Below, piece after piece: positions 3,984 to 49,763 of a stretch of DNA of 51,043 nucleotides. The notes below the pieces were generated by a model that worked only from the letters and a program-made list of their open reading frames with translations, searched no databases and had not been told where the DNA came from. The position numbers and the translations under genes were made by a program. The DNA lies in NCBI GenBank assembly GCA_964472225.1, contig CAYYJV010000001.1, positions 1 through 51,043 on the forward strand, in the 5' to 3' direction. Within the stretch, counting starts at the first letter, position 1. Every line of letters starts with the position of its first letter. The DNA is from an uncultured Candidatus Saccharibacteria bacterium. Lineage in GTDB: Bacteria; Patescibacteriota; Minisyncoccia; Minisyncoccales; MHMH01.

Positions 3984-4957
3984 AACAAAGAAATTAAAAC
4001 ATTGGAGACCTTTTGGGAATCGTGCTCCAAAAGATCGGGTTTTAGTAAGTTTAAACCTATAAAATTAGGTGGTAAAGAAGCCCGATCAAAAGAAACCGGT
4101 TCCAAAAATTGAGGGTGTTCCTTTTTATATTTTTCGATTATCTTTTTTGGAGGAAAGGAATTGTTGTAGAGCACGAAATCCAACCTGTCTTCCAGCAACT
4201 TTTCAATTTCTCCGGCAAAGTTTAAAACCGAAAAGCCATTGGTTTCGCCGTTTTTAGTCATTAAGTTGCAGATATAGACTTTTTTAGCTTTGCTTTTCTT
4301 AATGGCTTCGGGGATTCCTCGGACCAATAAAATTTGGGCCAGAGAAGAAAACAGGTCTCCTGGGCCGATGACTATCAAATCTGCTTTTTTGATGGCTTCC
4401 AGAGATTTAGGATAAGCTTTGGCTTCGGGCTCCAAAAATATTCTCTTTATTCCTATTTTGCCGTCATGCTTGGGAACATCTATATTCCCCTCTCCTTTAA
4501 TAATTTGTCCGTCGTCCAATTCTACGCAAAGGGTGGCATCATCGAGGGTGGCCGGTAAAAGCTCGTGCCTGGGTAGAATTTCCAAATCTTCTTTGATTTC
4601 TTCTTCCAGCTCTTCCATAGATTTTTCAAAATTGTCGGCAGCCGTTACAAAAGAAGAACAATAAAGATTGGCTAGAACGTGATTCTCCAGGGGGCCGTCT
4701 TTTAAGCGAGAGGACAGCATTTCTTTTTTCTGGGGGGATGCGCCGGATAAAGCCAAGGCTGCTCGACGGAAATCGCCAAAAGATACTTTGGTTTTAAAAT
4801 AATCTCTCTCCCGACCCGCCGATCCTCCCGAATCCAGCATGGCCGAAATAACCGAAATCTGTAAAGGATAATTTTTTAATCCCTCCAGCACGGCTTTCGG
4901 CATGGCGTTTCCCCCGCCCAGACAAACGATTCTTTTATTTGAATTTATTGATGACAT
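3980..4957 (-). CDS. yvcK: YvcK/CofD-family protein (gluconeogenesis factor / GlmR-like UDP-sugar-binding regulator family)
   Basis: 325 aa. VCLGGGNAMPKAVLEGLK, SAMLDSGGSAG and IVIGPGDLFSS are typical of the YvcK/2-phospho-L-lactate transferase family. Confidence 0.8.
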   Translation of the reverse strand: MSSINSNKRIVCLGGGNAMPKAVLEGLKNYPLQISVISAMLDSGGSAGRERDYFKTKVSFGDFRRAALALSGASPQKKEMLSSRLKDGPLENHVLANLYCSSFVTAADNFEKSMEELEEEIKEDLEILPRHELLPATLDDATLCVELDDGQIIKGEGNIDVPKHDGKIGIKRIFLEPEAKAYPKSLEAIKKADLIVIGPGDLFSSLAQILLVRGIPEAIKKSKAKKVYICNLMTKNGETNGFSVLNFAGEIEKLLEDRLDFVLYNNSFPPKKIIEKYKKEHPQFLEPVSFDRASLPPNFIGLNLLKPDLLEHDSQKVSNVLISLL

Positions 4958-5792
4958 TATGCCAATTGACTTCTCTCTTTATATTATACCAAGGTCCTTT
5001 CAATTGGGGCCATTGGGATTCAAAAGCGGGTTTCTCGATTTTGTAAAAAAGCCCGATGGGGACCTTGGTGTCTTTTTCGTAAGAATAGTCCCATTCCCTC
5101 GCTTTTTCCAGGGCTTTATTAAAATTACTCGCATCGTGACCGTTGTCAAGCTTGTAAACATTTTTGTTCAAATAGGGAACGGAATATTTATGATAGACAA
5201 TGCATGGCTGCAAAATGTCAATGAAAGAAAACCCTTTATGGTTTATGGCTTGCTTTATTAAATCTTTCAAATGAGAAACCTCCAAAGCATAAGCCCTGGC
5301 CACAAAAGTGGCTCCCGCTTCCATTGCCAAGACAAGCGGATTTAGAGGATTTTCTGCCAAGCCCAAGGGGCTGGAACCATCCTTAAATCCTTTTTCCGTG
5401 GTAGGAGTAAACTGGCCGGTAGTCAGAGAAAAAACCTGATTATTGTGCACCATCATTGTAATATCGGCATTGTAGCGGCAGTTATGAACGAAATGCTCCA
5501 TGCCTTCGGCATAAGTATCGCCGTCGCCGCCAAAACCAATGACTTTCAAATCGGGGTTGCCCAGTTTTATGCCGAAAGCTAGGGGCAAAACCCGGCCATG
5601 AATGCCGTAAAAGCCCTTCAGGTTTAAATAATCATAAATTTTAGCGTGACAGCCAATGCCCGTAACCATAGCCGTGCTGCCGGCAATATCCAACTCGGCG
5701 ACGGCTTCTTTTACGGCCCGTAAAATGCCGAAGTTCAGACAACCCGGACACCACGTATTTATTTCTTTTGTGCCTAAATCTTCCGGTTTCAT
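4935..5792 (-). CDS. 2-oxoacid:ferredoxin oxidoreductase, beta (TPP-binding) subunit
   Basis: 285 aa. WCPGCLNFGI and GFGGDGDTYAEG are the TPP-binding motif of the KorB/PorB family. Confidence 0.85.
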   Translation of the reverse strand: MKPEDLGTKEINTWCPGCLNFGILRAVKEAVAELDIAGSTAMVTGIGCHAKIYDYLNLKGFYGIHGRVLPLAFGIKLGNPDLKVIGFGGDGDTYAEGMEHFVHNCRYNADITMMVHNNQVFSLTTGQFTPTTEKGFKDGSSPLGLAENPLNPLVLAMEAGATFVARAYALEVSHLKDLIKQAINHKGFSFIDILQPCIVYHKYSVPYLNKNVYKLDNGHDASNFNKALEKAREWDYSYEKDTKVPIGLFYKIEKPAFESQWPQLKGPWYNIKREVNWHNVINKFK

Positions 5793-7405: not shown

Positions 7406-9220
7406 TTATTCGACGGTGACGGATTTGGCGAGGTTGCGGGGCTTATCCACATCGCAGCCGCGTAACACTCCCATATGATAAGCGAAAAGCTGCAAGGGTA
7501 CGACGCTTAAAATCGGGGTGAGCATTTCCAGGGTTTTGGGAATGTAAATTACGTCGTTTGCCAGCTTTTTGATTTCTTTGTTGCCTTCCGTAGCCAAAGC
7601 AATGATAGGTCCTTTCCTGGCCCTAATCTCCTCAAGGTTGGAAATGGCTTTCTCGTAAACCGAATCTGTCGGACAAATCACAAAAGTCGGGAAGCTCTCG
7701 TCAATCAAAGCAATGGGACCGTGCTTCATTTCCCCGGCTCCGTAGCCCTCGGCGTGAGCATAGGAAACCTCTTTTAATTTCAAGGCTCCCTCCAAAGCGA
7801 CAGGATAGTTGTACTTTCTGCCGAGGTAGAGGAAATTGCTGAAATCTTTGTACTTTTCAGCTAATTTTTTAACCTGGTTGTTTTTTTGCAAAACCTCTTT
7901 TACCAAAGTGGGCAAACGCTGTAACTCTTTGACTATTCTTTGCCCCATCACCACCGACAAATCTTTTTGTCTTCCCAAACACAAAGTAAAAAGAGCTAAA
8001 ACGACCAACTGGGAAGTAAAAGCCTTGGTGGAAGCTACGCCAATTTCGGTTCCCGCTCGATTATAAACTCCGGCGTCGGTCTCCCGGGAAAGGGAAGACC
8101 CCACCGCGTTAACAATTCCTAGGCTTAAAATTCCTTTTCTTTTAATTTCTTTTAAGGCAGCTAAGGTATCGGCTGTTTCCCCGGATTGAGAAATAGCCAA
8201 AACCGCCGTCTTTTTATCAATAATTGGCTTGCGATAACGAAACTCCGAGGCAAAATCTACTTCGGTGGGAAGACCGGCGTATTCTTCCAGCATGTACTCT
8301 CCCACGAGTCCGGCGTGATAAGCCGTACCGCAAGCCACGATGTTGATTCTTTCTATTTCCCGCAACTTCTCTCGAACAGACTCCAAACCGCCGAGCCTGA
8401 CAGAGCCCGGCCCCAAAAGAATTCTTCCTTTGAGGGAATTTTCTATGGACTCGGGCTGTTCCATAATTTCTTTTAGCATAAAATGGGGATAACCTTTTTT
8501 CACGACATCTTCTGCTTCTACTTCCAGAGATTCGGGCTGTTTTTCCCTAAGAATTAAGAGATCGTTGGGAGTTAAAACGGCTATTTCGTTATCGTCAAGA
8601 TTAACTACTTTTTTGCAGTAGGGAGCGATGGCGCTGGCATCGGAAGCCACGAAATATTCCTTTTTGGAGCCAACTCCAATTAAAAGAGGGCTGGAAAGGC
8701 GAGCCACTACCATTTTGCCGGGATCATCCTTGGCAATAATGGCTAAGGCATAAGCCCCTCTGATTAATCTCAAGGACTTTCTGACGGCTTCCTCCAGATT
8801 TCCCTGAAAATGTTTCTCAACGAGATGAGCCACTATTTCGGTATCGGTTTCGGAAGCAAACTTATGCCCTTCTTTTCTCAGTTGTTCTTTTAATTCTTTG
8901 TAGTTCTCAATAATGCCGTTATGGACCAGCCAAATATTGCCCCGACAATCACTATGAGGATGAGCGTTTGTTTCGGTTACCCCTCCATGAGTTGCCCAGC
9001 GCACATGACCAAGACCGATATTGCCGTTTAAGGTGCCGCTGCTCCTTAATTTTTTCTCCAGGGTTTCCAATTTGCCCACGGTCTTAAGGCAGGCGATCTT
9101 GCCGTTCTCAAAAACAACAAGACCCGAGGAGTCGTATCCTCGGTAGCTTTCTCTTTGGAGGCCGCTCATTAAAATGGGGACCGCTTTCTGTTTACCCAAA
9201 TAGCCGACGATACCGCACAT
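7406..9220 (-). CDS. glmS: Glutamine--fructose-6-phosphate aminotransferase
   Basis: 604 aa. It has the MCGIVGY Ntn start, GHVRWATHG, two SIS domains (SQSGETADT) and the C-terminus KPRNLAKSVTVE. Confidence 0.95.
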   Translation of the reverse strand: MCGIVGYLGKQKAVPILMSGLQRESYRGYDSSGLVVFENGKIACLKTVGKLETLEKKLRSSGTLNGNIGLGHVRWATHGGVTETNAHPHSDCRGNIWLVHNGIIENYKELKEQLRKEGHKFASETDTEIVAHLVEKHFQGNLEEAVRKSLRLIRGAYALAIIAKDDPGKMVVARLSSPLLIGVGSKKEYFVASDASAIAPYCKKVVNLDDNEIAVLTPNDLLILREKQPESLEVEAEDVVKKGYPHFMLKEIMEQPESIENSLKGRILLGPGSVRLGGLESVREKLREIERINIVACGTAYHAGLVGEYMLEEYAGLPTEVDFASEFRYRKPIIDKKTAVLAISQSGETADTLAALKEIKRKGILSLGIVNAVGSSLSRETDAGVYNRAGTEIGVASTKAFTSQLVVLALFTLCLGRQKDLSVVMGQRIVKELQRLPTLVKEVLQKNNQVKKLAEKYKDFSNFLYLGRKYNYPVALEGALKLKEVSYAHAEGYGAGEMKHGPIALIDESFPTFVICPTDSVYEKAISNLEEIRARKGPIIALATEGNKEIKKLANDVIYIPKTLEMLTPILSVVPLQLFAYHMGVLRGCDVDKPRNLAKSVTVE

Positions 9221-9226
9221 ATATGT

Positions 9227-11710
9227 TTAAACTACGAAATTAATGAGTTTTCCTGGCACAAATATCACCTTCTTGAGTGGTTTGTTGGCTATCCATTTTT
9301 TAACCTTTTCTCGCCCCAATGTCAATTCCTCTGCCTGCTTTTGAGAAATATCAACAAATACCTCAATTTTATCTCTAACCCTGCCGTTAACCTGAATAAT
9401 CAATTGGGTTTTTTCTTCTTTTACCAATTTCGGATTATATCGAGGCCATTGCTGATTATGAATGCTTTCTCGTTCTCCCATGTTATGCCACAATTCCTCG
9501 CTTATGTGAGGGGCAAACGGCGCCAAGAGTTTAATTATCAATTTCCAATTTTCACCGTGTGGATCGGTGGAACTTTTCAATGATTGAGGTTGTTTGGATG
9601 CTTCATTTATTAATATCATCAGGGCGGAAATGGCTGTGTTAAACCTCATGCCCTCAATATCTTCTGTCACCTTTTTAATAGTTTTATGCAATAGCCTTTC
9701 TATTTTTTCATTTTTAATTTCGCTTTTTGATTTTTTATTTTTAATTTTTAATTTTCCAAATAGATCCCATACTCTATTAAGGAATCTATAAATTCCCACG
9801 ATCCCATTTGGGTTCCATGCCCCTCCTTGGTTGTATGGCCCCATAAAACAAAGGTACATCCTTACGGCGTCAGCGCCATACTTTTTCACCTGCTCATCGG
9901 GATCTATCACATTGCCCCTGGATTTTGACATTTTTTGGCCATCGGGACCCAAAATAATTCCCTGGTGTCGCAAGGCCAAAAACGGCTCTTTGAAACCCAA
10001 ATGGCCAAGCTTATTTAAAACCTTAGTAAAAAACCGGGAATACAAAAGATGCAAGACGGTGTGCTCGGCTCCTCCAACGTACATTCGCACTGGCAGCCAT
10101 TTTTCAATTTTGTTTTTGGCAGCGAATTTTTTATCGTTATGGGGATCGGCGTAACGAAGATAATACCAAGAAGAACAAACAAAGGTATCCATGGTATCTG
10201 TTTCCCTTTGGGCAGAACCCTTACACTTGGGACAAGTGGTTTCAACAAAACTTTTGGATTTGGCCAGAGGAGAATTCCCTTCGCCCGTAGGCTTGTAATC
10301 TTTGATTTTCGGCAGCAAAACCGGCAAATCTTTTTCCGGAACCCGCTGCCAACCGCATTTTTCACAAAAAACCATGGGGATGGGAGCCCCCCAATATCTC
10401 TGTCGTGAGATCAGCCAATCACGTAATCTATAATAAACTCTTTTCTTGGCTAACCCCTTTTTAGCTAGCCACTCCCCGATTCTTTCTCTGGCATCAACAG
10501 AAGGCATACCCGTAAACCGACCGGAATTAACCAACACCCCCTCTCCCTCATAAGCCCTATTAACGAAGTCATTCTTCGTTAATGGTTTGATAACGTCAAT
10601 AATTGGTAAATTGTATTTCTTGGCGAAATCAAAATCTCTTTGGTCGTGAGCGGGGACTGCCATAATGGCTCCTGTGCCGTAATACATTAAAACATAATCT
10701 GCCACGAAAATAGGGATTTCCCGGCCGTTCACCGGATTGACGGCTTTAACGCCCCTTAATTCTATCCCGGTTTTCTCTTTTATTTCGGAAATCCTCTCCT
10801 TTTCCGTTTTTTTCTTGGATGACGTGACATATTCCTGAACAAATTTTAAATTTTGGATTTTGAGCTTTGGGTTTTTCAAAATCGGATGTTCCGGAGCTAC
10901 CACTAAATAAGTACAACCGAACAAGGTATCCGCTCTCGTAGTGAAAACGGGGATTTTAAATTTTGCCGTGCGCTGTGCGGAAACGGCGGGTGAACAACGG
11001 GCGTTTTGAATTTTGAATTCTATTTGCCATCCTTCTGACCTTCCAATCCAGTTCCTCTGCATAATCTTCGTGGTTTCGGGCCAATCCAGGCCCTCCAAAT
11101 CTTTCAATAAATCCTCGGCAAAGTCAGAAATTTTAAAAAGCCACTGCTCGATTTCCTCTTGCACCACCTCCGAATCGCACCTTTCGCACAAACCATCAAT
11201 CACTTGTTCGTTGGCTAAAACCGTCTTACAGGAAGGACAAAAATTACAGGGCACCTTGGCTCGGTAGGCCAAACCCGCCTTGTGCAGCTGTAAAAACATC
11301 CACTGGGTCCATTTATAATATTCGGGCTCAGAAGTAACAATCTCCCTGGACCAGTCATAACAATTCCCAAGTGACTTCAATTGCTTTCTCATTCTCTCAA
11401 TGTTCTTTTTGGTCCAGTTTTTGGGATGAATCCCCCTCTTTAAAGCAGCATTTTCTGCCGGTAATCCAAAAGAATCAAAGCCAATCGGCGACATTACATT
11501 AAACCCCTGCATTCTTTTGAAGCGAGCGTAAACGTCAGCGGGGGCGAAATTATACCAATGTCCTATATGAAGGTCGCCCGAAGGATAAGGAAACATCACC
11601 AGATGGTAAAAATTCTCCCTGCCTTTGGTCTTATCGGGAGTTTTGTAAATTCCAGAATTCTCCCAAATTTTCTGCCATTTTTTTTCAATTCTTTGTGGAT
11701 TATACTTCAT
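9227..11710 (-). CDS. leuS: Leucyl-tRNA synthetase
   Basis: 827 aa. It has the HIGH-type motif (SGDLHIGH), the KMSKS motif, the CP1 editing-domain blocks (TTRADTLFGCTY, GTGAIMAVPAHDQRD) and the C-terminal anticodon-binding domain. Confidence 0.95.
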   Translation of the reverse strand: MKYNPQRIEKKWQKIWENSGIYKTPDKTKGRENFYHLVMFPYPSGDLHIGHWYNFAPADVYARFKRMQGFNVMSPIGFDSFGLPAENAALKRGIHPKNWTKKNIERMRKQLKSLGNCYDWSREIVTSEPEYYKWTQWMFLQLHKAGLAYRAKVPCNFCPSCKTVLANEQVIDGLCERCDSEVVQEEIEQWLFKISDFAEDLLKDLEGLDWPETTKIMQRNWIGRSEGWQIEFKIQNARCSPAVSAQRTAKFKIPVFTTRADTLFGCTYLVVAPEHPILKNPKLKIQNLKFVQEYVTSSKKKTEKERISEIKEKTGIELRGVKAVNPVNGREIPIFVADYVLMYYGTGAIMAVPAHDQRDFDFAKKYNLPIIDVIKPLTKNDFVNRAYEGEGVLVNSGRFTGMPSVDARERIGEWLAKKGLAKKRVYYRLRDWLISRQRYWGAPIPMVFCEKCGWQRVPEKDLPVLLPKIKDYKPTGEGNSPLAKSKSFVETTCPKCKGSAQRETDTMDTFVCSSWYYLRYADPHNDKKFAAKNKIEKWLPVRMYVGGAEHTVLHLLYSRFFTKVLNKLGHLGFKEPFLALRHQGIILGPDGQKMSKSRGNVIDPDEQVKKYGADAVRMYLCFMGPYNQGGAWNPNGIVGIYRFLNRVWDLFGKLKIKNKKSKSEIKNEKIERLLHKTIKKVTEDIEGMRFNTAISALMILINEASKQPQSLKSSTDPHGENWKLIIKLLAPFAPHISEELWHNMGERESIHNQQWPRYNPKLVKEEKTQLIIQVNGRVRDKIEVFVDISQKQAEELTLGREKVKKWIANKPLKKVIFVPGKLINFVV
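9702..9756. repeat. Degenerate heptanucleotide AT-rich array inside leuS
   Basis: The coding strand reads GAAAATT AAAAATT AAAAATA AAAAATC AAAAAGC GAAATTA AAAATGA. It is translated in frame as KLKIKNKKSKSEIKNEK. Confidence 0.55.
10952..11020 (-). repeat. In-frame insertion in leuS: a GC-rich core (10965-11003) flanked on both sides by heptamer modules
   Basis: The coding strand reads GAATTCAAAATTCAAAAC-GCCCGTTGTTCACCCGCCGTTTCCGCACAGCGCACGGC-AAAATTTAAAATC, which encodes EFKIQNARCSPAVSAQRTAKFKI. The core is roughly 80% identical, by my hand alignment, to intergenic 22741-22782. Confidence 0.7.
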
Positions 11711-12486: not shown

Positions 12487-12664
12487 AATTAGTGAACTCG
12501 GAATTAGTCACTAAGAAAAACGTTCCGCAAGACGAACGGGCATGGTTTCTGCCAGAGCGTCCGGCAGAAGAGCGAGCCCGAGGTTCGAGCAGCGCGAGCG
12601 CGCTGGGCGAGCGACTGCGGTTTTTCGTGCGACTGATTCTGAATCTTATCGCCGAGCGATTAAT
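12487..12664 (-). other. GC-rich structured intergenic element between glyA and folD (candidate cis-regulatory RNA or attenuator, class unassigned)
   Basis: This spacer is markedly GC-rich in an otherwise AT-rich, tightly packed genome. The minus-strand RNA contains the hairpins AGCGCG..CGCGCT and CTGCC..GGCAG, a direct repeat CAGTCGC x2, and a weak hairpin CGTTC..GAACG followed by TTTTTCTT just upstream of folD. Confidence 0.3.
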
Positions 12665-14535: not shown

Positions 14536-15303
14536 CTAAATTTTAAATAACTCTTTAGCATTTCGGGTGGTAATTTGAGCTATTTCTTTATAATCTAAAT
14601 CTTTAATTTTAGCAATTTTCTCTGCCACATATTTTACATAAGCTGGCTCATTCCGACCCTTTTGGGAAGGCGGAGTCAAATAGGGGCAATCGGTTTCAAT
14701 TAAAATTCTCTCTAGAGGGGTTTTTTTAATGACATCGTCCAAATCCATTTTAAATATTATCCCGTTAAACCCCAAATAAAGCCCTTTTTCTATATATTTC
14801 TCTGCCTGATTCCGATCGCCGGTGAAACAATGAATAACACCTCTTAATTTCGAATTTCGTGCTTTGAATTTCAAATTTACGATCTCTATGAGATCCTCGT
14901 GGGCCTTTCGACAATGAAATATGATCGGCAGGTTTAATTCTTTGGCCAAATTCATTTGTTCTATCAAAATTTTCTTTTGCCTTTCTTTAAATGAAATGTA
15001 CTCTTCTTTGTAGTCCAGGCCGATTTCCCCAATGGCTACCACCCTTCGACTATCGCTTAGGGCAAGCTTTTTATATTCGTCGTAATTAAAATCATCTTGA
15101 GCATGAATCGGATGCAGGCCGATGGCTGCATAAACTCCTTTTGGATATTCTTCAGCTATTCTTACCGCTCTTTTGCTGGTAGTTAATTGTGAGCCGACAT
15201 TTATCATCCAAATATCACCGTCTAAAGAACGCCGAATAACTCTGTCGGCGTCTTCTTTGTAGGCCGAGAAATTCAAATGGGCGTGAGTATCGATTAACAT
15301 CAA
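14536..15303 (-). CDS. tatD: TatD-family metal-dependent hydrolase
   Basis: 255 aa. IDTHAHL, EIGLDY, IFHCR and ETDCPYL are the TatD motifs. Confidence 0.9.
   Translation of the reverse strand: MMLIDTHAHLNFSAYKEDADRVIRRSLDGDIWMINVGSQLTTSKRAVRIAEEYPKGVYAAIGLHPIHAQDDFNYDEYKKLALSDSRRVVAIGEIGLDYKEEYISFKERQKKILIEQMNLAKELNLPIIFHCRKAHEDLIEIVNLKFKARNSKLRGVIHCFTGDRNQAEKYIEKGLYLGFNGIIFKMDLDDVIKKTPLERILIETDCPYLTPPSQKGRNEPAYVKYVAEKIAKIKDLDYKEIAQITTRNAKELFKI
14845..14879. repeat. Heptamer-type AT-rich module inside tatD
   Basis: The coding strand reads AAATTTGAAATTCAAAGCACGAAATTCGAAATT, which encodes NLKFKARNSKL. A short GCAC island sits between the heptamer units. Confidence 0.5.
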
Positions 15304-16718
15304 AGACGCGGAAATAATGGTTTGCTCTTTTTTGTTTTAATTTGTTCTAATATTTTTTCCGAAGTTCCGGGCAAAAACGGTTTTAACATTTCAGCAATAT
15401 GATTCAGGGCGAACAATAAATCACCAATAACCCTCTTGTCCTTGCTCTCCCACGGTCTTTTTTTCTCAATGTATTTGTCGCAAAAACCAATTAGCTCCCA
15501 AATCGTAGCCAGCGCTTCATTAAATCGAAGCTCACTTAGAGAACGATGGTATTCTTTCCAAGTTTTGTTTATTTCCGCTTTGAATTTGGCTGTGTGGGAA
15601 CAGTGGGTTTTTGAAAATTTATTGGAAATTAAAAATTGGAAATTAGAAATTTGCGCCATTTTTATTACTCTGGCAACCAAATTCCCGAGCCCTTTTGCCA
15701 AATCAGAATTATAGCGCCCCTCAAATTTTTCGCGCGTAAAGTCTCCGTCTTCCGTCGGCGGAATCTCCCGCAGAAGAAAATATCTCACCGGATCTGTCCC
15801 GTATTTCTCAACCAATTCAAAAGGATCAATAACATTCCCCAAGCTTTTTGACATTTTTTGACCGTTAACGGTTATGAATCCGTGAACAAATATAATTTTA
15901 GGTAAAGGCAATCCGAGAGATAAAAGCATGCCCGGCCAAATCAAGCAGTGAAACTTCTGAATGTCTTTACCTATACACTGAACATCTGCTGGCCAGCGCC
16001 CCGGAGCTCCGGAAAGATAATTGGTTAAAGCATCTGCCCAACAATAGATAGTATGCGCGTCGTCGTCGGGAACGGGAATCCCCCATTTTAAATCTTTCCG
16101 AGGTCTGGAAAAACTGATGTCTTCCAAACCATGCTTTACAAAGCTAAGCATTTCATTCTTGCGGCTTTCGGGGACGATTTTTATCTTATCCCTTTTAATA
16201 ATTCCTTCTATTTTGGAAGAATATTTAGAAAGACGAAAAAAATAATTTTCTTCTTCAACTAATTCTGGTTCTTCTTGGTGAATTCCGCATCGGCCGTTTT
16301 TCAAATCCTTTTTGGTAATAAACGCCTCGCAGCCGACACAATAGAGCCCTTTGTACTTTTTCTTGTAAATATCGCCGTTTTTCTTTAATGCCAGCCAAAC
16401 CTTTTCTACCGAAGGCCAATGTTTTTTTCGATCGCTTGTACGGATGAAATTATCGTTGGAAATGTTCAAAATTTTAGTCAGCTTTTTGAATTTTTTCGCG
16501 AGCAAATCAGTAAATTCTTTCGGACTTTTGCCCGCCGCTGCGGCGGCTTCTGCCACCTTTTTTCCATGCTCGTCCGTGCCCGTTAAAAAGAAAACATCCT
16601 CGCCCAAAAGCCGGTGATATCTGGCTATCACATCTGCTTGAATTACTTCTAAGGCGTACCCGATGTGCGGAGAAGCGTTAGTATAAGCTATGCTAGTGGT
16701 AACATAGAACTTCTTCAT
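15300..16718 (-). CDS. metG: Methionyl-tRNA synthetase (short form, no C-terminal tRNA-binding appendix)
   Basis: 472 aa. It has the HIGH-type motif (ASPHIGY), KMSKS, and a CxxC knuckle (CVGCEAF). Confidence 0.95.
   Translation of the reverse strand: MKKFYVTTSIAYTNASPHIGYALEVIQADVIARYHRLLGEDVFFLTGTDEHGKKVAEAAAAAGKSPKEFTDLLAKKFKKLTKILNISNDNFIRTSDRKKHWPSVEKVWLALKKNGDIYKKKYKGLYCVGCEAFITKKDLKNGRCGIHQEEPELVEEENYFFRLSKYSSKIEGIIKRDKIKIVPESRKNEMLSFVKHGLEDISFSRPRKDLKWGIPVPDDDAHTIYCWADALTNYLSGAPGRWPADVQCIGKDIQKFHCLIWPGMLLSLGLPLPKIIFVHGFITVNGQKMSKSLGNVIDPFELVEKYGTDPVRYFLLREIPPTEDGDFTREKFEGRYNSDLAKGLGNLVARVIKMAQISNFQFLISNKFSKTHCSHTAKFKAEINKTWKEYHRSLSELRFNEALATIWELIGFCDKYIEKKRPWESKDKRVIGDLLFALNHIAEMLKPFLPGTSEKILEQIKTKKSKPLFPRL
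15578..15652 (-). repeat. In-frame insertion in metG: a truncated GC core (15588-15608) plus a heptamer array (15609-15652)
   Basis: The coding strand reads ...CAAATTTCTAATTTCCAATTTTTAATTTCCAATAAATTTTCAAAAA-CCCACTGTTCCCACACAGCC-AAATTCAAAG, which encodes ISNFQFLISNKFSKTHCSHTAKFK. The core matches 22754-22774 at 20 of 21 positions by hand alignment. Confidence 0.65.
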
Positions 16719-22689: not shown

Positions 22690-22720
22690 AAGTTATTATG
22701 AATTTTGTTTTACAAAATTG

Positions 22721-22868
22721 GGTCTCCCCCGTTTAGGAAGGCCCGCTGTTCACCCACTGTTCGCACACAGCACACGGCAGCGAAGTGTTATCCGCCACGG
22801 GCGGATTCCCTTGGGGATTCCGGGCAACTCCCGAGAGATTTCTAAAAGAAGGGGGTCGGGGGAAATCC
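22721..22868 (+). repeat. Copy B of the inverted-repeat-bounded GC-rich element, carrying nested modules including the leuS/metG-homologous core (22741-22782)
   Basis: It runs from GGTCTCCCCCG to GGGGGTCGGGGGAAATCC, and the termini pair. Internally it carries the hairpin ATCCGCC-ACG-GGCGGAT and the module TCCGGGCAACTCCCGAGA. The 3' arm (22845-22868) lies inside the recO coding region. Confidence 0.6.
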
Positions 22869-23498
22869 TCTAATTACATCTTTATTATACCATTCAGAAG
22901 CATCTTTTAATAATTCTAAATGAATGGGTTCGAATTTTAATCTCGACAGGGTCTGCCAGTCCTTTTTCAAGATTAACTTTAAAATCTTGGCCAAATCATT
23001 ATCGATTTTCTTGCCGCAAAGGGAATCTCTCTGAAGTTCCGGCGAATACCCAAGAATGGAAGCCAAGCTCCAGAAAAAATAGTAATAAATAATTTTTAAT
23101 TTTAAATTTTTAATTTCATAATCATTTAATTTGTGGAAAACATCCTTGATCAGCTGCCAAATCTGTTCGTCTTTTTCTTCTTGAGGGGTTAAATTATCCA
23201 GAGTTTCGGCGATTTGATAAGCTACTTCTAATCTTTCTAAATCACTTCTTATGTTCTTAAAACTATTAACCAAAATCGCATCCGTCAAAGTTTTATGAGT
23301 TTTTCCCTGGATGAATTCAATCTCTGAAAGATAAAAAAGGCCGGCCCCTCCTCTCAATTTTGACTTGATTTTCCTAATGGCCCTGCCCAGAATCTCCAGT
23401 TTGCCGAAATTCTCGGTGTAAATCGTCAAAAGCCGGTTTGCCTCTCCCAAATCCTTCTTTTTCAAGATTAATCCTTGAGTTCTGTAATGGATAGCCAT
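22842..23498 (-). CDS. recO: DNA repair protein RecO
   Basis: 218 aa. The N-terminal OB-fold block GLILKKKDLGEANRLLTIYTENFGKLEILGRAIRK is typical of RecO. The last residues, GFPPTPFF, are encoded by the repeat arm. Confidence 0.85.
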   Translation of the reverse strand: MAIHYRTQGLILKKKDLGEANRLLTIYTENFGKLEILGRAIRKIKSKLRGGAGLFYLSEIEFIQGKTHKTLTDAILVNSFKNIRSDLERLEVAYQIAETLDNLTPQEEKDEQIWQLIKDVFHKLNDYEIKNLKLKIIYYYFFWSLASILGYSPELQRDSLCGKKIDNDLAKILKLILKKDWQTLSRLKFEPIHLELLKDASEWYNKDVIRGFPPTPFF

Positions 23499-26400
23499 AA
23501 GTTCTGCTGGTCAACTTTTATTTCCCCTTCCACTAGAAAAACTTTCTTCAATTTTCTTTTCAAAACGAAATCTTCGGCCCGGGTTTCTGTTAAAATGTTT
23601 CTTTTGTGCCTTTCCAACACCTTGTTCAATTCCGGGTCGCCGAAATATTGAACCAGAATTTTATCCTTAGGCTTCAAACCGGCTTTTTTCCGTAACGCCT
23701 GGATCTGACGAATAACCTCCCGAACTTGGCCTTCTTCCTTTAAGGCGGGAGTAATTTTGGTGTCTAATTTAAATGTTTTACCCAAAGTAATTTTCTTAAC
23801 GTTGACCTCCTCTTTAATTAATTCTGCTAATTCCTTATCTATCTTTTCTTTAATCCGCAATTCGGCCAACGGCTGGCGTACCTTGATTCCGGCTTTTGAT
23901 CTTTCTGCCAGGGCTAAAGCCACTATTTCTCTCACTTTTTCCATTTTCTGATTCAATCTCTTATCAATCAATCTTTTGTTGGTTTTCGGCCAATTCTCCA
24001 AATGCACACTCCGCGAAGAACGGTTCTCCGTCACACTGCGATAGATTTCTTCGCTAAGAAATGGAATAAAAGGGGCGGCTAATTTAGACAAAGTTTGCAA
24101 AACCAAAGCCAGGGTGCCGGCAGCTTTTGAAAAGCGCTTGCGCGACCTGCGAATATACCAAAGGGAAAGGTCATTAATAACAAAATTTTCGATCGCCCGG
24201 GCGGCTCCTGTTACGTCGTATTTATCAAGCTTGTCGGTCGTTTCTTGAATAAGCTCATGTAGCCTCGAAATAATCCATCTATTTAAAATATGATTGCAAT
24301 ACCTTTTTCCCGATTGGTAAAAATGTGTTACATAGGTTTGGTAAAATTGATAAGAGTTCCAGAAGGTCAAAATAAATTTTTTCAGGGCTTGCTCCACATC
24401 TTTCTCAGAGAAAAGCTTGACATCGCCCGGCTGATTGACCGTGTAGAAATACCAACGGGCGGCGTCGGTTCCGTACTTTTCAATAATATACCAAGGGTCT
24501 ACTACGTTACCCTTGGACTTCGACATTTTTTCTCCTTTTTCATCCAGAACATGACCCAGAGAAATCACATTCTTATAAGGAGGGCCAAAACCCAAAAGAG
24601 TGGAGATAGCCAAAAGAGTATAAAACCAACCTCGAGTTTGATCCACTGCCTCGGAAATATAATCAGCCGGAAACAATTCCGGAGGAATTAATTTTTGATT
24701 TTTGATTTTTGATTTTTGATTTTGAGCGAAGGGCCAATGGCCCTGAGCGAATGGCATGGCTCCGGAATCAAACCAAACGTCGATTAATTCCGGCGTTCTT
24801 TCCATTATATTTTGGCATTTGGGGCAATGAAATTTCACTTCATCAATGTAAGGGCGGTGAAAATCTATTTGTCCCTCTTCGTTTAAAGGAACATTTTTAT
24901 ACTCAATCTTGCGCCACTCTCCTGTTTTGATGTCAGTATTTTTAATGTTCATATTCAGTAGTTCTTGATCGCTCAGCATTTTCACGGCTCCCTCCAGCAG
25001 CCAAAGCGGATCACCGTGGCTGACAATTAAAATGGTTTTATTCTGATGTTTTTTGTCAATTTCGGCAAGCCACCTGACCATTCTCCTCCGACACTCTCCC
25101 CAATTTTCTCCGCCGGCAGAATTTTTACTATAAAATCTTTCCAGGTTTTGGGGGAAAGCCCGGTAAAATTCTTCCTTTTTCTTCCCGTGATAAATCCCCA
25201 AATTGACATCTCGTAATCTTTTATCAAAGATTATTGGCGCCCCTAAATATTTAGCGACGATTTCCGCTGTCTGACGAGTTCTGGCCATATCCGAGGAATA
25301 AATTAAATCTATCCCTTTGCCCTTAAGCTCTCTGGCAGCTTTTTTTATTTGATTCTGGCCGACTTTGGTTAACGGAACGGGTTTACTTTCGGGGAAAGGA
25401 TAAACCCATTCCCTTTTCTTTGTCTGATAAACTGTCTGGCCGTGGCGCAGGATATAATATTTATTAGTGGAAAACTTTTGCTTGATGATATCTTTTTTAG
25501 AGCCGATGATTTCTTGGTGTCCGCATTTCTGGCACTGCCAAATGGGCAAAGGAGTTCCCCAATATCTTTCCCTGGAAAGAGCCCAATCTTTAAGTTCTTT
25601 CAGCCATTCACCAAACCTACCCTCTTTTAAGTGGGGAGGCACCCAATTGATCTTTTGATTGTTTTTGATCAGCTGGCTTTTGGCTTTTTGCATATTAATA
25701 AACCAACTTTCTTTGGCATAATAAAGTAAGGGGGAGGTGCATCTCCAGCAAAAGGGATAATCGTGCTCATATAATTCTTCCTTGAATAAAAGGCCCCTCT
25801 TTTTAAGATTGTCGATAATCAAGGGGTCGGCATCTTTTACCCAGAGGCCTCGCCAGTTTTTTACTTCTTTTTTGAATTTCCCCTCTTCGTTTACATTCAA
25901 TATAACAGGCAGGTTGTTTTTCTTTCCCGCCTCCATGTCTTCCTCACCAAAAGCCGGAGCTATGTGCACCAAGCCCGTTCCTTCTTCTAGGGAAACAAAA
26001 TCCCCAGCAATGACCAGAGCGTAGGGGGGGCCGACCTCTACACGATATGGGGGTTCATATTGTAAGCCCAACAAATCTTTTCCTTTAATTTCCTTCATTA
26101 TCTCGCCCTCAATCCCCAAAGATTCCATCCTCTCTTTGGCCAGAATCAAATATTCTTCTCCGACTTTCATTTTAACGTAAGTAAAATTGGGGTTGACTGC
26201 CACAGCCACGTTCCCCGGCAAAGTCCAGGGAGTGGTCGTCCAAACCAGCAAATAAGAATTTTTGAAATTTGGATTTTGGATTTTGAACTTCACAGAGATA
26301 GCGGGTTCTTTGATTCTTTTATAGCCGAGGGCGACTTCGTGAGATGAAAGACTGGTGCCACATCGAGGACAATAAGGCACCACTTTGTAATCTTTGTACA

Positions 26401-26896
26401 AAAGGCCTTTTTCGTAAATTTGCTTGATGATCCAAAAAAGACTTTCCATGTAATTCGGATCATAGGTAATGTAGGGATTTTCCATGTCCAGCCAAAAACC
26501 AATTCTTTCTGTCAGCTTTTCCCAATCTTGTTTGTAAGTCCAGACTGATTGCTTACATTTTTGGTTAAATTTAGCAATACCATATTTTTCAATGTCTTTT
26601 TTAGATTTTAGACCCAGTTTCTTTTCAATTTCTAACTCCACTGGCAATCCATGGGTATCCCAGCCGGCTTTCCTTAAAACCCGAAAACCCCGCATGGTTT
26701 TGTACCTACAGATTATGTCCTTATAAACCCGACTTAAAACATGGTGAATTCCGGGCTTAGCATTAGCTGTAGGCGGTCCCTCGTAAAACACAAAGTCACG
26801 AGCTTTCGCTCGCTGCTTAATGCTTTTCTCAAAAATCTTTTTTTCCTTCCAAAACTTTAAAATCTCCTGCTCTTTTTTTGAAAAATTGAGCTCCAT
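23468..26896 (-). CDS. ileS: Isoleucyl-tRNA synthetase (type 2-like) carrying an internal histidine-phosphatase domain
   Basis: 1142 aa, uninterrupted. It has the PPTANAKPGIHH (HIGH region) block, the CP1 editing blocks (WTTTPWTLPGN, GTGLVHIAPAFGEED), KMSKS and the anticodon-binding domain. Residues ~478-672 form a His_Phos_1-like domain (see findings). Confidence 0.95.
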   Translation of the reverse strand: MELNFSKKEQEILKFWKEKKIFEKSIKQRAKARDFVFYEGPPTANAKPGIHHVLSRVYKDIICRYKTMRGFRVLRKAGWDTHGLPVELEIEKKLGLKSKKDIEKYGIAKFNQKCKQSVWTYKQDWEKLTERIGFWLDMENPYITYDPNYMESLFWIIKQIYEKGLLYKDYKVVPYCPRCGTSLSSHEVALGYKRIKEPAISVKFKIQNPNFKNSYLLVWTTTPWTLPGNVAVAVNPNFTYVKMKVGEEYLILAKERMESLGIEGEIMKEIKGKDLLGLQYEPPYRVEVGPPYALVIAGDFVSLEEGTGLVHIAPAFGEEDMEAGKKNNLPVILNVNEEGKFKKEVKNWRGLWVKDADPLIIDNLKKRGLLFKEELYEHDYPFCWRCTSPLLYYAKESWFINMQKAKSQLIKNNQKINWVPPHLKEGRFGEWLKELKDWALSRERYWGTPLPIWQCQKCGHQEIIGSKKDIIKQKFSTNKYYILRHGQTVYQTKKREWVYPFPESKPVPLTKVGQNQIKKAARELKGKGIDLIYSSDMARTRQTAEIVAKYLGAPIIFDKRLRDVNLGIYHGKKKEEFYRAFPQNLERFYSKNSAGGENWGECRRRMVRWLAEIDKKHQNKTILIVSHGDPLWLLEGAVKMLSDQELLNMNIKNTDIKTGEWRKIEYKNVPLNEEGQIDFHRPYIDEVKFHCPKCQNIMERTPELIDVWFDSGAMPFAQGHWPFAQNQKSKIKNQKLIPPELFPADYISEAVDQTRGWFYTLLAISTLLGFGPPYKNVISLGHVLDEKGEKMSKSKGNVVDPWYIIEKYGTDAARWYFYTVNQPGDVKLFSEKDVEQALKKFILTFWNSYQFYQTYVTHFYQSGKRYCNHILNRWIISRLHELIQETTDKLDKYDVTGAARAIENFVINDLSLWYIRRSRKRFSKAAGTLALVLQTLSKLAAPFIPFLSEEIYRSVTENRSSRSVHLENWPKTNKRLIDKRLNQKMEKVREIVALALAERSKAGIKVRQPLAELRIKEKIDKELAELIKEEVNVKKITLGKTFKLDTKITPALKEEGQVREVIRQIQALRKKAGLKPKDKILVQYFGDPELNKVLERHKRNILTETRAEDFVLKRKLKKVFLVEGEIKVDQQNLWLSITELKD
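24691..24724. repeat. Heptanucleotide array inside ileS (4 perfect ATTTTTG units plus one 6-nt unit)
   Basis: The plus strand reads ATTTTTG x4 then ATTTTG. The coding strand translates it as QNQKSKIKNQK, just downstream of the WFDSGAMPF block. Confidence 0.75.
26257..26289. repeat. Heptamer-type array inside ileS
   Basis: The coding strand reads TTCAAAATCCAAAATCCAAATTTCAAAAATTC, which encodes KFKIQNPNFKNS. It lies immediately before the conserved LLVWTTTPWTLP block. Confidence 0.6.
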
Positions 26897-30111: not shown

Positions 30112-30437
30112 GGGGGTGACAGGATTCGACAGTTATTCTTTGCCAAAATCTGCAAGCAAAAGCTCTTCGAACAATAAGTGCCAACTTGTTCAAACAACCT
30201 GCTTACGCTTTGGCGTAACGCCATCTGAATAGTTGATTCTCGATAGACTATCTCAGGTGTTATATAAATCGAGATATCCGGTTTCTTTGCCTCGAAGATT
30301 CCGGGAATCAAAGAGGCTAGAAATGCTGAAATTTTGTCTATTTTATATTCAGTATTTCGAACGGCGAAATAGACTAAGCTTGTAGAGTGATTTTGGTAAA
30401 ATTTCTGGATCCGAGTTCAATTCTCGGCACCTCCACC
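30112..30437 (+). ncRNA. ssrA: tmRNA (ssrA), one-piece; predicted tag (A)NLFKQPAYALA
   Basis: The 5' end GGGGGTGACAGGATTCGACAG and the 3' end GGATCCGAGTTCAATTCTCGGCACCTCCACC form an acceptor stem with a G3-U pair and a T-arm (CCGAG-TTCAATT-CTCGG). The resume codon GCC is at 30180, the ORF GCC AAC TTG TTC AAA CAA CCT GCT TAC GCT TTG GCG runs to 30215, and the TAA stop is at 30216-30218. Confidence 0.9.
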
Positions 30438-30441
30438 TACT

Positions 30442-34693: not shown

Positions 34694-36412
34694 TTATTTA
34701 AAGAATTTTAATAATTTTTGTAAAGGGTGAACGTTGATAATATCTTCCTTCTCGGCCCAGCCACGCCTCGCCTGAGCGACGCCAAACTCCATAAAACGCA
34801 GTTGGTCCTTACGGTGAGAATCAGTATTAATAACCATTTTTACCCCTGCTTCCTTTGCCCTTCTGATATTTTGGTCATTTAAATCTAATCTCTCAGGAAA
34901 GGAATTAATTTCCAAAATTGTTCCAGTTTCTCTAGCCACTCTTAAAATTTTATCGAAATCAATTTGATATTCATCCCTCTTTTGAATTAGTCTTCCGGTT
35001 GGATGAGAAATTATATCCACATGAGGATTTTTTATTGCTTTAATTATTCTTTCTGTCATTTTTTCTTTGGGCATTTTGAAATTAGAATGAATACCGGCAA
35101 TTACGAAGTCCAATTTCGCCAGCGCTTCATCTTTGATATCAATCGAACCATCGTTTAAAATATTCGCTTCGCAACCGTGTAATATTTGAAAATTGAAAGT
35201 TGAAAATTGGGAATTAAGTTTATCTATCTCCTTTCTTTGTTGAGCCAACTGTCTTTCATTTAAGCCGTGCTCTATTTTTAAAAATTTGGTATGGTCGGTA
35301 ACCCCCACATATTCATATCCTCTTTCTTTTGCCGCCCTCGCCAAATCTTCAATACTATCCTCACCGCCGTTCCAATCGGAATGACAGTGCAAATCACCTT
35401 TAATGTCGTTGAACCTTATAAGCTGCGGAAGCTTTCCCTCCAAAGAAGCTTCAACTTCTCCTTGGTTTTCTCTCATTTCGGGAGGTATCCACAACATGCC
35501 CAACTTTTTATATACCTCCTCTTCTGTTTTACCGGCTATCATTTTTTTTCCTTTGAACAGACCGTATTCTGAAAGCTTAAACCCTTTTTCTATAGCTATT
35601 CTCCTGACGGCAATGTTGTGTTCTTTGGAGCCGGTAAAATACTGAAGAGCCGCGCCGTAGCTTTTCCTGGGCAGCACCCGCACGTCAATGTCAAAACCCC
35701 CTTTCATCCTGACAGAGGTCTTGGTGCTTCCTTTGCCCCAAACTTTCACAACTTCGGGTTGAGAAGCCACAAAATCCATCACTTTTTTGGGGGTTTTAGA
35801 AATTACCAGAAAATCAACATCGCCAATGGTCTCTTTCATGCGTCGGACAGAGCCCGCCGTATCCACCCTTGCCACCCCTTTCAATTCTTTTAGTTTTTGA
35901 TGAATAACCTTGACGCTGGGCAAAATATCTCCCAAAAGAAATCTCCCCTTGCTTCTTTTCAAAAAAGCAATTCCCTCCAAGATATTTTTCTCGGTTTTCT
36001 CTCCGAAGCCCTCCAAGGAAGCTATTTTATGGGCCTTAGCTGCTTTTTCCAAATCTTCCAGATTCCTGATTTCTAATTTCTCGTAAAGTTTTTTGGCTTT
36101 TTTGGGGCCCATACCCTCCACGGCCGTCAGCTCTTCCATTTTGATGGGGGTCTTTTTCTTGAGTTTTTCGTAGTACTTGATTTTCCCCGTCCTTATATAC
36201 TCTTCGATTTTCTCTGCTATGCTTTCTCCGACGCCAGGAATATCCTTCAACGCTTTCAACCCTCCCTCTTGGTAAATTTTGGCTACGTCATCTTCTAGAT
36301 CTTCCAAAACAAGAGCCGCCTTGCGGTAGGCCTGGGGTTTAAACTGTACTTCCTCCATTTCCAGAAAATCCGCTATTTCATAAAAAATGTTGGCGATCTC
36401 TTGGTTTCTCAT
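34694..36412 (-). CDS. polX: DNA polymerase X family protein with C-terminal PHP domain
   Basis: 572 aa. It has N-terminal HhH modules (IPGVGESIAEKI, VEGMGPKKAKKL), the nucleotidyltransferase block GSVRRMKETIGDVDFLV and the PHP motifs (GDLHCHSDWNGG, THPTGR). Confidence 0.9.
   Translation of the reverse strand: MRNQEIANIFYEIADFLEMEEVQFKPQAYRKAALVLEDLEDDVAKIYQEGGLKALKDIPGVGESIAEKIEEYIRTGKIKYYEKLKKKTPIKMEELTAVEGMGPKKAKKLYEKLEIRNLEDLEKAAKAHKIASLEGFGEKTEKNILEGIAFLKRSKGRFLLGDILPSVKVIHQKLKELKGVARVDTAGSVRRMKETIGDVDFLVISKTPKKVMDFVASQPEVVKVWGKGSTKTSVRMKGGFDIDVRVLPRKSYGAALQYFTGSKEHNIAVRRIAIEKGFKLSEYGLFKGKKMIAGKTEEEVYKKLGMLWIPPEMRENQGEVEASLEGKLPQLIRFNDIKGDLHCHSDWNGGEDSIEDLARAAKERGYEYVGVTDHTKFLKIEHGLNERQLAQQRKEIDKLNSQFSTFNFQILHGCEANILNDGSIDIKDEALAKLDFVIAGIHSNFKMPKEKMTERIIKAIKNPHVDIISHPTGRLIQKRDEYQIDFDKILRVARETGTILEINSFPERLDLNDQNIRRAKEAGVKMVINTDSHRKDQLRFMEFGVAQARRGWAEKEDIINVHPLQKLLKFFK
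35183..35216. repeat. Heptamer-type array inside polX
   Basis: The coding strand reads CCAATTTT CAACTTT CAATTTT CAAATAT, which encodes NSQFSTFNFQIL, between PHP motifs. Confidence 0.5.
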
Positions 36413-49687: not shown

Positions 49688-49763
49688 TGGTGTCCCCGGT
49701 GCGACTCGAACGCACAATCTTCAGCTCCGGAGGCTGACGCTTTATCCATTAAGCCACGGGGAC
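49688..49763 (-). tRNA. tRNA-Arg (anticodon CCG), CCA encoded
   Basis: The minus strand reads GTCCCCG TG GCTT AATGGATA AAGC G TCAGC CTCCGGA GCTGA AGATT GTGCG TTCGAGT CGCAC CGGGGAC A CCA. All four stems are fully paired. The anticodon loop is C-T-CCG-G-A. Confidence 0.9.

Follow-up and report, generated by a model that had tools for sequence, protein, structure and literature searches.

Why should one short GC-rich DNA sequence form part of two aminoacyl-tRNA synthetase genes, where it is read in different frames, and also occur untranslated in a spacer of the same small piece of a bacterial genome? The question is raised by metG, the gene for methionyl-tRNA synthetase (MetRS), on contig CAYYJV010000001.1 of assembly GCA_964472225.1, which is deposited as an uncultured Candidatus Saccharibacteria bacterium; the 51,043 nt analysed here, hereafter the window, also carry leuS and the intergenic copy. 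The best-named homologues of the window MetRS belong to Candidatus Nealsonbacteria, and hence to the Patescibacteria or candidate phyla radiation (CPR). We consider it probable, at about 0.7, that the metG segment is an in-frame passenger, one copy of a cassette that is dispersed at the DNA level. The cassette is a precisely bounded, GC-rich unit of net 18 nt (core CCCACTGTTCNCACACAGC, usually preceded by G) that sits within a stretch of A/T-rich heptamers. As shown below, it is an insertion/deletion polymorphism between close relatives, and the same sequence is found at non-homologous places, in all forward frames as well as reversed, across many Patescibacteria.

The cassette in metG and leuS as an insertion/deletion polymorphism

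The sequence that the initial annotation singled out is present at 15578-15652, where the minus strand is the coding strand and the translation is QISNFQFLISNKFSKTHCSHTAKFK. Tandem Repeats Finder (TRF) recovers the heptamer array described there at 15621-15651, as 4.4 copies of period 7 or 2.2 copies of period 14 (94% matches). Head-to-tail period-7 copies exceed chance in the window as a whole, as expected of coding microsatellites: 11 arrays are observed vs 1.55 per dinucleotide shuffle (maximum 3), an approximately 7-fold excess. The intergenic counterpart of the block is real, with 18 of 20 positions of CCCACTGTTCCCACACAGCC matched at 22753-22772 on the plus strand, but the 20 of 21 initially reported was slightly generous, the values being 18/21 and, for the core 19-mer, 18/19. 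No match of CCCACTGTTCCCACACAGCC elsewhere in the window arose in 100 dinucleotide shuffles. The reported difference in reading frame also stands: the metG block starts at codon position 2 (16718-15607 = 1111, remainder 1), and the homologous leuS block, CCCGCCGTT from 10990, at codon position 1 (11710-10990 = 720).

Codon-level alignment was made with the nearest relatives for which DNA is available, GCA_964486395.1 (L001) and a JGI contig (L002). In the metG of L002 exactly the block is missing, as a clean gap of 18 nt, and a perfect (AATTTCC)x4 array is kept; the identical 20-mer is present in metG of L001 and of a further assembly, L147. Because the block-free gene of L002 still has the array, the array is the older component and the block is an 18-nt indel. 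The idea that array and block arrived together is thus contradicted by the block-free relatives, in which the array is already in place. Nor is the metG copy best described as truncated; it is better regarded as the basic 18-nt cassette, with the 36-nt forms of leuS and the intergenic module as internally duplicated derivatives.

Array and 20-mer together make up the part of metG that is hypervariable among homologues, with the cassette nested inside the A/T array. Among 120 close, aligned MetRS homologues, the stretch from the helix ending LVARVI.MA to the helix starting INKTWK varies greatly in both length and sequence. Typical peptides at this site (ISNFQFPISNKFSNSKFQ, KFKIQNSKFKI and NPKSEILNPKQI) correspond to heptamer DNA read in differing frames, and SKTHCSH occurs in 2 of the 120, namely the window protein and one that is 83% identical to it. 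In other Nealsonbacteria the same metG position is occupied by different GC-rich hairpins (CCCGCC...GGCGGG, CCTGCCTTGCCGGCAGGCAGG and CCCCG...CGGGG), always within the A/T array, and the site is therefore a hot spot.

In the protein, cassette and array encode residues 358-376 (SNFQFLISNKFSKTHCSHT), a coil of the anticodon-binding domain that joins helix 329-357 to helix 377-395. An AlphaFold2 model built from a 43-sequence alignment has a mean predicted local distance difference test score (pLDDT) of 80 and a predicted template-modelling score of 0.84, with pLDDT <50 at residues 364-373. The loop is accordingly predicted to be disordered, and its sequence and length vary freely among close homologues. 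The helix before the loop aligns with the helix that serves in anticodon recognition in solved MetRS structures. The impression that this region is about 20 residues longer than usual did not survive alignment to PDB entries, which gives +8 vs the Aquifex aeolicus enzyme (2CSX) and +3 vs the Brucella enzyme (4DLP); the repeat-encoded stretch replaces the normal inter-helix loop and is not a pure addition.

Over a tract that starts about 240 nt upstream of the metG block and ends 60 nt downstream, the window and L001 share 96-100% identity, and 100% from -90 to +60; beyond +60 their identity drops to 53-70%, and precisely there the window becomes about 90% identical to L002. The upstream identity with L001 partly reflects general conservation, and the hypervariable array and block are 100% identical. 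The latter suggests transfer of the allele by homologous recombination, as part of a tract that has its breakpoint at the element. A second metG indel lies at about 16000-16030 of the window (residues ~238-242), where nine residues present in L001 and L002 (GYSKNSKKF / SYSKNSSKF) are missing.

The leuS gene is polymorphic at two sites. The long form at site 1 is identical to the intergenic copy at 30 of 37 positions; it is represented by a short form in L002 and by an inverted short form in L001 (GGGTGTGAACAGTGGG, read SLGVNSGH). Site 2, which is empty in the window, is filled in both relatives, by a clean 36-nt insertion of the long form in L001 and by the 20-mer in L002. The leuS of L002 therefore carries the identical 20-mer with A-rich flanks at two sites, both read K-THCSHTA-K, and its metG lacks the block. 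The AAATTC of the metG 3' flank also occurs at L002 leuS site 1, and the metG and leuS copies both end in TAKFK. The 18-nt gap and the leuS copies of L002, the inversion in L001, the indel at the intergenic locus and the all-frame and non-coding copies described below bear out the original proposal of a DNA-level mobile or recombining element instead of a conserved peptide.

Distribution, sequence contexts and host genes of the cassette

Public collections were scanned for exact matches to the 19-mer core. The 19-mer occurs in 32 stretches among species-representative genomes, about 27 of them from Patescibacteria (Nealson-, Gribaldo-, Wildermuth- and Paceibacteria), and in more than 118 metagenome stretches among the matches listed; genome and metagenome hits alike are nearly all from Patescibacteria, and viral contigs gave none. 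It is dispersed in multiple copies within genomes, with 3 copies in the 51-kb window, 6 exact copies in one 282-kb contig, 5 in a complete 639-kb Nealsonbacteria genome and 4 in the L001 genome. A handful of matches in Proteobacteria, Actinobacteria and one archaeon look like chance or an unrelated element. Three such stretches (L011, L012 and L034, from Rhizobiaceae, Thalassococcus and Alcanivorax) have the 19-mer in a nearly identical long open reading frame (ORF) with the peptide DASDYAVGAV..., which has the look of a retroelement RNase H/integrase region; this is probably an unrelated mobile element that matches by chance.

Within the Patescibacteria the copies recur in the settings listed as contexts A to E in Table 1, and their boundaries are alike in unrelated flanks: the logo of 120 copies shows S-AAA-WW-G leading into the block, the G at -1 being present in 76%, and A-rich sequence directly behind it. 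A filled site is exactly 18 or 36 nt longer than an empty one and has G in place of T/A at -1; because the flanks are themselves repeats, a target duplication is indistinguishable from the array. In context C the spacing of intact units across the block, as read by eye from the listed flanks, is always the unit plus 18 nt, and the array phase is thus kept; in L014, neighbouring filled and empty units differ by 18 nt. Locus L003 has four tandem 18-nt copies at 4950-5239 on the minus strand and an inverted copy 60 nt further on, the sole doublet among about 130 copies.

In 898 kb of seeded loci, near-matches with 1, 2 and 3 mismatches number 17, 8 and 7, and a shuffle gave none; this steep fall-off implies that the copies are young or constrained. 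The family thus consists mainly of near-exact copies, as would follow from copying that is recent or still under way and is offset by fast loss, or else from a constrained motif; ascertainment of the loci by exact match limits how far the two can be told apart. Taken alone, the block forms a 4-bp hairpin (CTGT/ACAG) too weak to be significant (z = -0.7). In contexts A (z = -3.3) and D (z = -6.1) strong hairpins carry it as their apical loop, and in some lineages it lies at the centre of palindromes with varying arms; the metG region has no significant fold. Terminal inverted repeats typical of miniature inverted-repeat transposable elements are lacking in the block, the 188-nt intergenic backbone does have complementary ends, and no transposase lies beside the copies examined, for which no systematic search was made.

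Adenine mutagenesis by a diversity-generating retroelement, with variable and template repeats, was considered and rejected: the intergenic and leuS long forms differ at 7 positions, just 3 of which are A in the intergenic copy. A resemblance to ParS, dif or DnaA-box sequences was likewise dropped, the motif not being palindromic beyond CTGT/ACAG.

Nearly one third of the unique copies (42 of 133) are intragenic, lying inside ORFs at a depth of at least 60 codons. They are read in forward frame 0 (PTVHTQ) in 17 cases, forward frame 1 (HCSHT) in 4, forward frame 2 (PLFTHS) in 7 and in reverse in 14, the reverse-frame peptides being AVCEQW, CCVGTVG and LCGNSG. The commonest variant is open in five of six frames; the sixth contains a TGA, which is removed in the C variant. 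Host proteins, assigned through Pfam, are mostly essential and comprise RpoB (two copies in two frames), GyrA, UvrA, UvrB (two copies), UvrC, ClpB, ArgRS (a tandem pair), MnmA and FemAB. Unrelated housekeeping genes thus carry the cassette in frame where the protein structure tolerates it, as in the low-pLDDT coil of MetRS. By this census of frames and orientations the motif is neither unique to the three window loci by chance nor conserved as amino acids, the two outcomes that would have told against the initial annotation.

Table 1. The cassette, its hosts and its surroundings in the window, and the contexts in which copies occur in other genomes.
Feature	Position	Strand	Sequence or description	Basis
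metG, methionyl-tRNA synthetase, cassette host	15300..16718	-	472 aa	Pfam, PDB alignment, AlphaFold2 model
GC-rich cassette in metG, 20-mer	15588..15607	-	CCCACTGTTCCCACACAGCC, translation (K)THCSHTA	net +18 nt vs closest cassette-free homologue
A/T-rich period-7/14 array in metG	15608..15652	-	AAATTTC TAATTTC CAATTTT TAATTTC CAAT AAATTTTC AAAAA, encodes QISNFQFLISNKFSK	TRF; homologues
3' flank, A/T repeat resuming beyond cassette	15578..15587	-	AAATTCAAAG (KFK)	
Intergenic GC-rich mosaic element	22691..22878	+	~188 nt, complementary ends TCTCCCCCG...CGGGGGAAA	alignment to L002, fold
36-nt long form of cassette in intergenic element	22742..22777	+	CCCGCTGTTCA + CCCACTGTTCGCACACAGC + ACACGG	TRF period 11 at 22742-22762
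leuS site 1, diverged 36-nt long form	10964..11001	-	CCCGTTGTTCACCCGCCGTTTCCGCACAGCGCACGG, translated ARCSPAVSAQRTA	AAATTCA-type heptamer flanks, just before CP1 editing domain
leuS site 2, period-7 array without cassette (empty)	9697..9755	-		comparison with L001, L002; TRF
Context A			apical loop of GGGGAAAC/GTTTCCCC hairpin in multi-copy GC-rich mosaic elements	
Context B			after TTAATTGCGAAGCAATT hairpin, before AGGGAGCGAAGCGACCGGTT; in intergenic clusters close before start codons, in both orientations with respect to the gene	
Context C			within short tandem arrays of lineage-specific units AATTTTC, AAGATAC, AAAAATC, AAATTCC, GAATATTC, GAACATTC	
Context D			palindrome centre, CCTACGAAT...block...ATTCGTAGG	
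Context E			2-4 tandem copies, period 18; coding and non-coding DNA	

Larger GC-rich elements and other features of the window

The intergenic copy belongs to a larger module of 188 nt, which is an insertion in comparison with L002: at the syntenic recO/DUF11 junction of that relative, recO directly adjoins the next ORF. Pieces of the same GC-rich backbone occur elsewhere in the relatives. A shorter module with the same complementary ends occupies another spacer of L002 (16091-16200), and L001 tatD (8585-8725) has a 44-47-residue in-frame insertion of the backbone between RRSLG and WMINVG of the TatD DNase. This insertion, which is absent from the window and L002, contains the hairpin TTTTTTGCGAAAGCAAAAAA, A'/B' arms and CCAGAAACCG...GTCTGG. 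In ileS of L002, at about 640-700, an 18-residue insertion (VQFEHAKRSNKRSDQTLP) derives from two repeats of AGCGAAGCGATC, the 'X' motif that follows the block in intergenic modules. The inserted element of the window also supplies the last ~12 codons and the stop of recO (…DVIRGFPPTPFF*, 22842-22878, minus strand); L002 recO has a different end and an overlap with the next ORF.

Nine backbone copies were extracted with nhmmer. Several end in a terminator-like hairpin, and their 3' half is mosaic and variable, so that the family resembles mosaics such as bacterial interspersed mosaic elements (BIMEs) or Rickettsia palindromic elements (RPEs) more than a single RNA gene; the backbone as one conserved small RNA was rejected on this ground. 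When the window, its intergenic module and five related loci were compared with Rfam, at the gathering threshold and at E<=10, only tmRNA and tRNA were returned, and promoter and terminator scans round the module and the metG site gave nothing above shuffles.

The spacer at 12487-12664, between the SHMT gene and folD, is likewise GC-rich (180 nt; AGTCGCACG...GCTCGC repeats...CTGGCAGAAACC...) and is conserved in L001, while the same spacer in L002 holds a block-bearing module instead. It may be another member of the mosaic family; it has no Rfam match even at E<=1, and nhmmer gave no link to that family.

Period-7 A/T-rich arrays of the CAAAAWT or CGAAATT type are the dominant tandem repeat of the window and are almost all intragenic, in tsaD, leuS, tatD, recO, ileS and polX (examples at 626-651, 9704-9755, 14846-14878, 23090-23116, 24691-24723, 26260-26285 and 35186-35209); a 7-nt unit does not divide into whole codons, and the encoded peptides therefore repeat every 7 residues, as in KFKIQNS. 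The ileS gene (23468-26896, minus strand) encodes a 1142-aa isoleucyl-tRNA synthetase with a His_Phos_1 domain at residues 481-663 of the catalytic domain, at the usual place of the CP1 editing domain, and the same arrangement is found in L002. A tmRNA gene (30112-30438, plus strand; tag ANLFKQPAYALA) and a tRNA-Arg(CCG) gene (49688-49763, minus strand) are both ordinary.

Origin of the cassette and comparison with known repeats

We propose that the cassette would spread by DNA-level copying into DNA that is prone to become single-stranded, such as hairpin loops or arrays of short tandem repeats. For spread inside one genome our leading candidate, which would account for most copies, is gene conversion or template switching by way of the flanking repeats, although we would put the chances against this specific route. 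The A/T repeats on both sides could act as the shared homology for such exchange, which would explain both the kept array phase and the identical metG and leuS flanks. Identical boundaries in unrelated flanks point to a discrete copying event and not to random recombination, and occasional insertion into such flanks would need a sequence-specific activity. Between related lineages, the cassette would move with homologous-recombination tracts. A length of 18 nt and five open frames out of six mean that it would rarely destroy genes, and it could persist for that reason in loops of essential proteins as near-neutral selfish DNA.

An unlikely extension of this proposal is that Patescibacteria possess an active, sequence-specific system that writes a fixed, frame-neutral 18-nt cassette into the single-stranded loops formed by tandem repeats and hairpins, those in essential genes included, or that the cassette is a regulon mark pairing with loop-complementary small RNAs. 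Such writing might be done by short RNA- or DNA-templated insertion, with reverse transcription of a telomerase- or retron-like kind, or by a single-strand transposase of the HUH type for which a minimal substrate suffices. If such a writing system exists, no smaller discrete mobile unit would be known from bacteria.

Several points weigh against a passenger cassette of this kind. No enzyme, autonomous partner element or target-site duplication has been identified, and 18 nt is, to our knowledge, far below the size of any known transposable unit. Copy density is modest, at about 1 per 17-130 kb, and for gene conversion flanks of 14-30 nt would be about as short as RecA-dependent exchange permits. 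The 19-mer hardly varies between lineages that are deeply divergent, in part through ascertainment by exact match, and this invariance could reflect functional selection on a protein or RNA binding site, in which case the element would not be purely selfish. Lastly, it is from the gene sequence that we infer translation of the cassette as written within the MetRS loop.

One rival reading is that the 19-mer is a selected functional DNA site, for instance an uptake signal or a binding site for a host protein, whose numbers would grow through biased uptake and recombination or through selection, with the coding copies as tolerated side effects. Such a site would be nearly invariant across divergent Patescibacteria and indifferent to orientation, frame and coding status, as the motif is within its A/T-rich flanks; the recombination mosaic is centred on the element, near-matches are rare vs exact copies, and CTGT-N6-ACAG in the motif and GTTC-N7-GTTC in the long form have the dyad or direct-repeat look of operators. 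We nevertheless hold it to be improbable. Uptake sequences, namely the uptake signal sequences (USS) of Haemophilus and the DNA uptake sequences (DUS) of Neisseria, occur about once per kb, far more densely than the cassette, whose copies are clean 18-/36-nt insertions and 18-nt tandems with no in-place point mutation, nested in arrays and hairpin loops with no consistent orientation vs promoters. A module acting at the RNA level, in which putative small RNAs from the GC-rich elements would pair with the block in mRNAs (metG, leuS, rpoB, gyrA, uvrAB, clpB and argS) to co-regulate or process them, seems to us more doubtful again. Multi-copy GC-rich elements do expose the block's reverse complement in a hairpin loop: in those of context A, GCUGUGUGUGAACAGUGGG occupies the apical loop above a GGGGAAAC/GUUUCCCC stem (DNA-fold z = -3.3), and the end of several is GUCGCGUGCCGCGAC with a U-run behind it. 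ORF copies, too, are forward in 28 cases vs reverse in 14. However, this bias is near expectation because one reverse frame holds TGA, and one third of genic copies would be antisense to the proposed pairing. In the window module, moreover, the block is turned the other way round with respect to the backbone, the 3' parts of the elements are mosaic and form neither one conserved RNA nor an Rfam family, and backbone pieces are themselves inserted in frame in tatD. Both proposals fit the clean 18-nt indels, the tandems and the orientation of copies less well than does a DNA-level passenger.

Explanations confined to the protein, or to accident, are excluded. A peptide insertion with a function in MetRS, such as metal binding by His and Cys (THCSH) or tRNA contact by a Lys-rich loop, would account for an in-frame segment that is kept in three assemblies, follows the helix aligned with anticodon recognition and, like the leuS copy, ends in TAKFK. 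Its probability is nonetheless very slight, given that 2 of 120 Nealsonbacteria-like MetRS have the insertion and their neighbours are unrelated there in sequence and length, that the same DNA gives PTVHTQ, PLFTHS, AVCEQW and others elsewhere in addition to its non-coding copies, and that the segment is inverted in L001 leuS and its loop is predicted to be disordered. That the resemblance is due to chance or to faulty assembly, for which the shortness of the match alone speaks, has next to no probability: 100 shuffles gave 0 matches, and the identical sequence occurs in independent NCBI, JGI and ENA assemblies.

If the cassette is a DNA-level passenger, it would explain much of the low-complexity and length variation in CPR proteins, and would caution those who annotate such proteins or build phylogenies from them that these loops are driven by DNA and are no adaptation of the protein. 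It would also offer a sharp marker for recombination and strain typing, and it poses the mechanistic question of what copies an 18-mer so precisely. Literature searches on CPR in-frame repeats, heptamer repeats and the motif itself returned no prior description for the candidate phyla radiation, and the motif is in no paper of the library searched.

Several families of short repeats invite comparison. REP (repetitive extragenic palindromic) sequences, their REPIN doublets and BIMEs are likewise short (20-40 nt) repeats in mosaic clusters, for which single-strand hairpin DNA is the likely substrate, and the intergenic context B arrays, with a TTAATTGCGAAGCAATT hairpin and AGCGAAGCGA motifs, have a BIME-like look. 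REPs, however, are extragenic, strongly palindromic and usually arranged as inverted doublets, whereas the cassette is about one third intragenic, has a weak hairpin and forms one doublet in about 130 copies; it does not show the extragenic palindromic doublets of systems with REP-associated tyrosine transposases (RAYTs). With USS and DUS the cassette shares a short, near-invariant motif in both orientations and all coding frames, a place in poorly conserved protein segments and A/T-rich flanks. It differs in a density 20-100 times lower and in its origin by clean insertion without in-place substitution, and thus has neither the density nor the substitution origin of an uptake sequence.

Selfish repeats carried in frame by essential genes are textbook knowledge for Rickettsia. 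RPEs are in-frame selfish DNA in Rickettsia housekeeping genes (PMC10969869), about 100-150 bp long and palindromic, with one conserved peptide, and hence one frame, per family (Ogata et al. 2000, via PMC10969869). RPEs and the cassette are both dispersed repeats in a small, A/T-rich genome of a host-dependent bacterium, found in frame in unrelated housekeeping genes at fold-tolerant positions and also in non-coding DNA, with no transposase known. The cassette, by contrast, is 18 nt long (36 nt when duplicated), has a weak 4-bp hairpin, is read in all frames and both orientations to give six peptides, forms 18-nt tandems and is nested in arrays and hairpin loops; it is therefore not a palindrome of about 100-150 bp with one peptide. 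The more RPE-like partner is the 110-190-nt GC-rich mosaic backbone (window 22691-22878; the tatD insertion of L001). The GC clusters of yeast mitochondria are 30-50 bp, clearly palindromic modules with A/T target duplications, optional copies of which lie in frame in var1. They resemble the cassette as short GC-rich modules in an A/T-rich genome that have A/T-repeat flanks, vary among strains and are sometimes in frame in genes; the cassette is shorter, barely palindromic, without a definable duplication, and bacterial instead of mitochondrial. In behaviour, RPEs and yeast mitochondrial GC clusters are the closest counterparts of the cassette, which is far smaller than either and free of frame.

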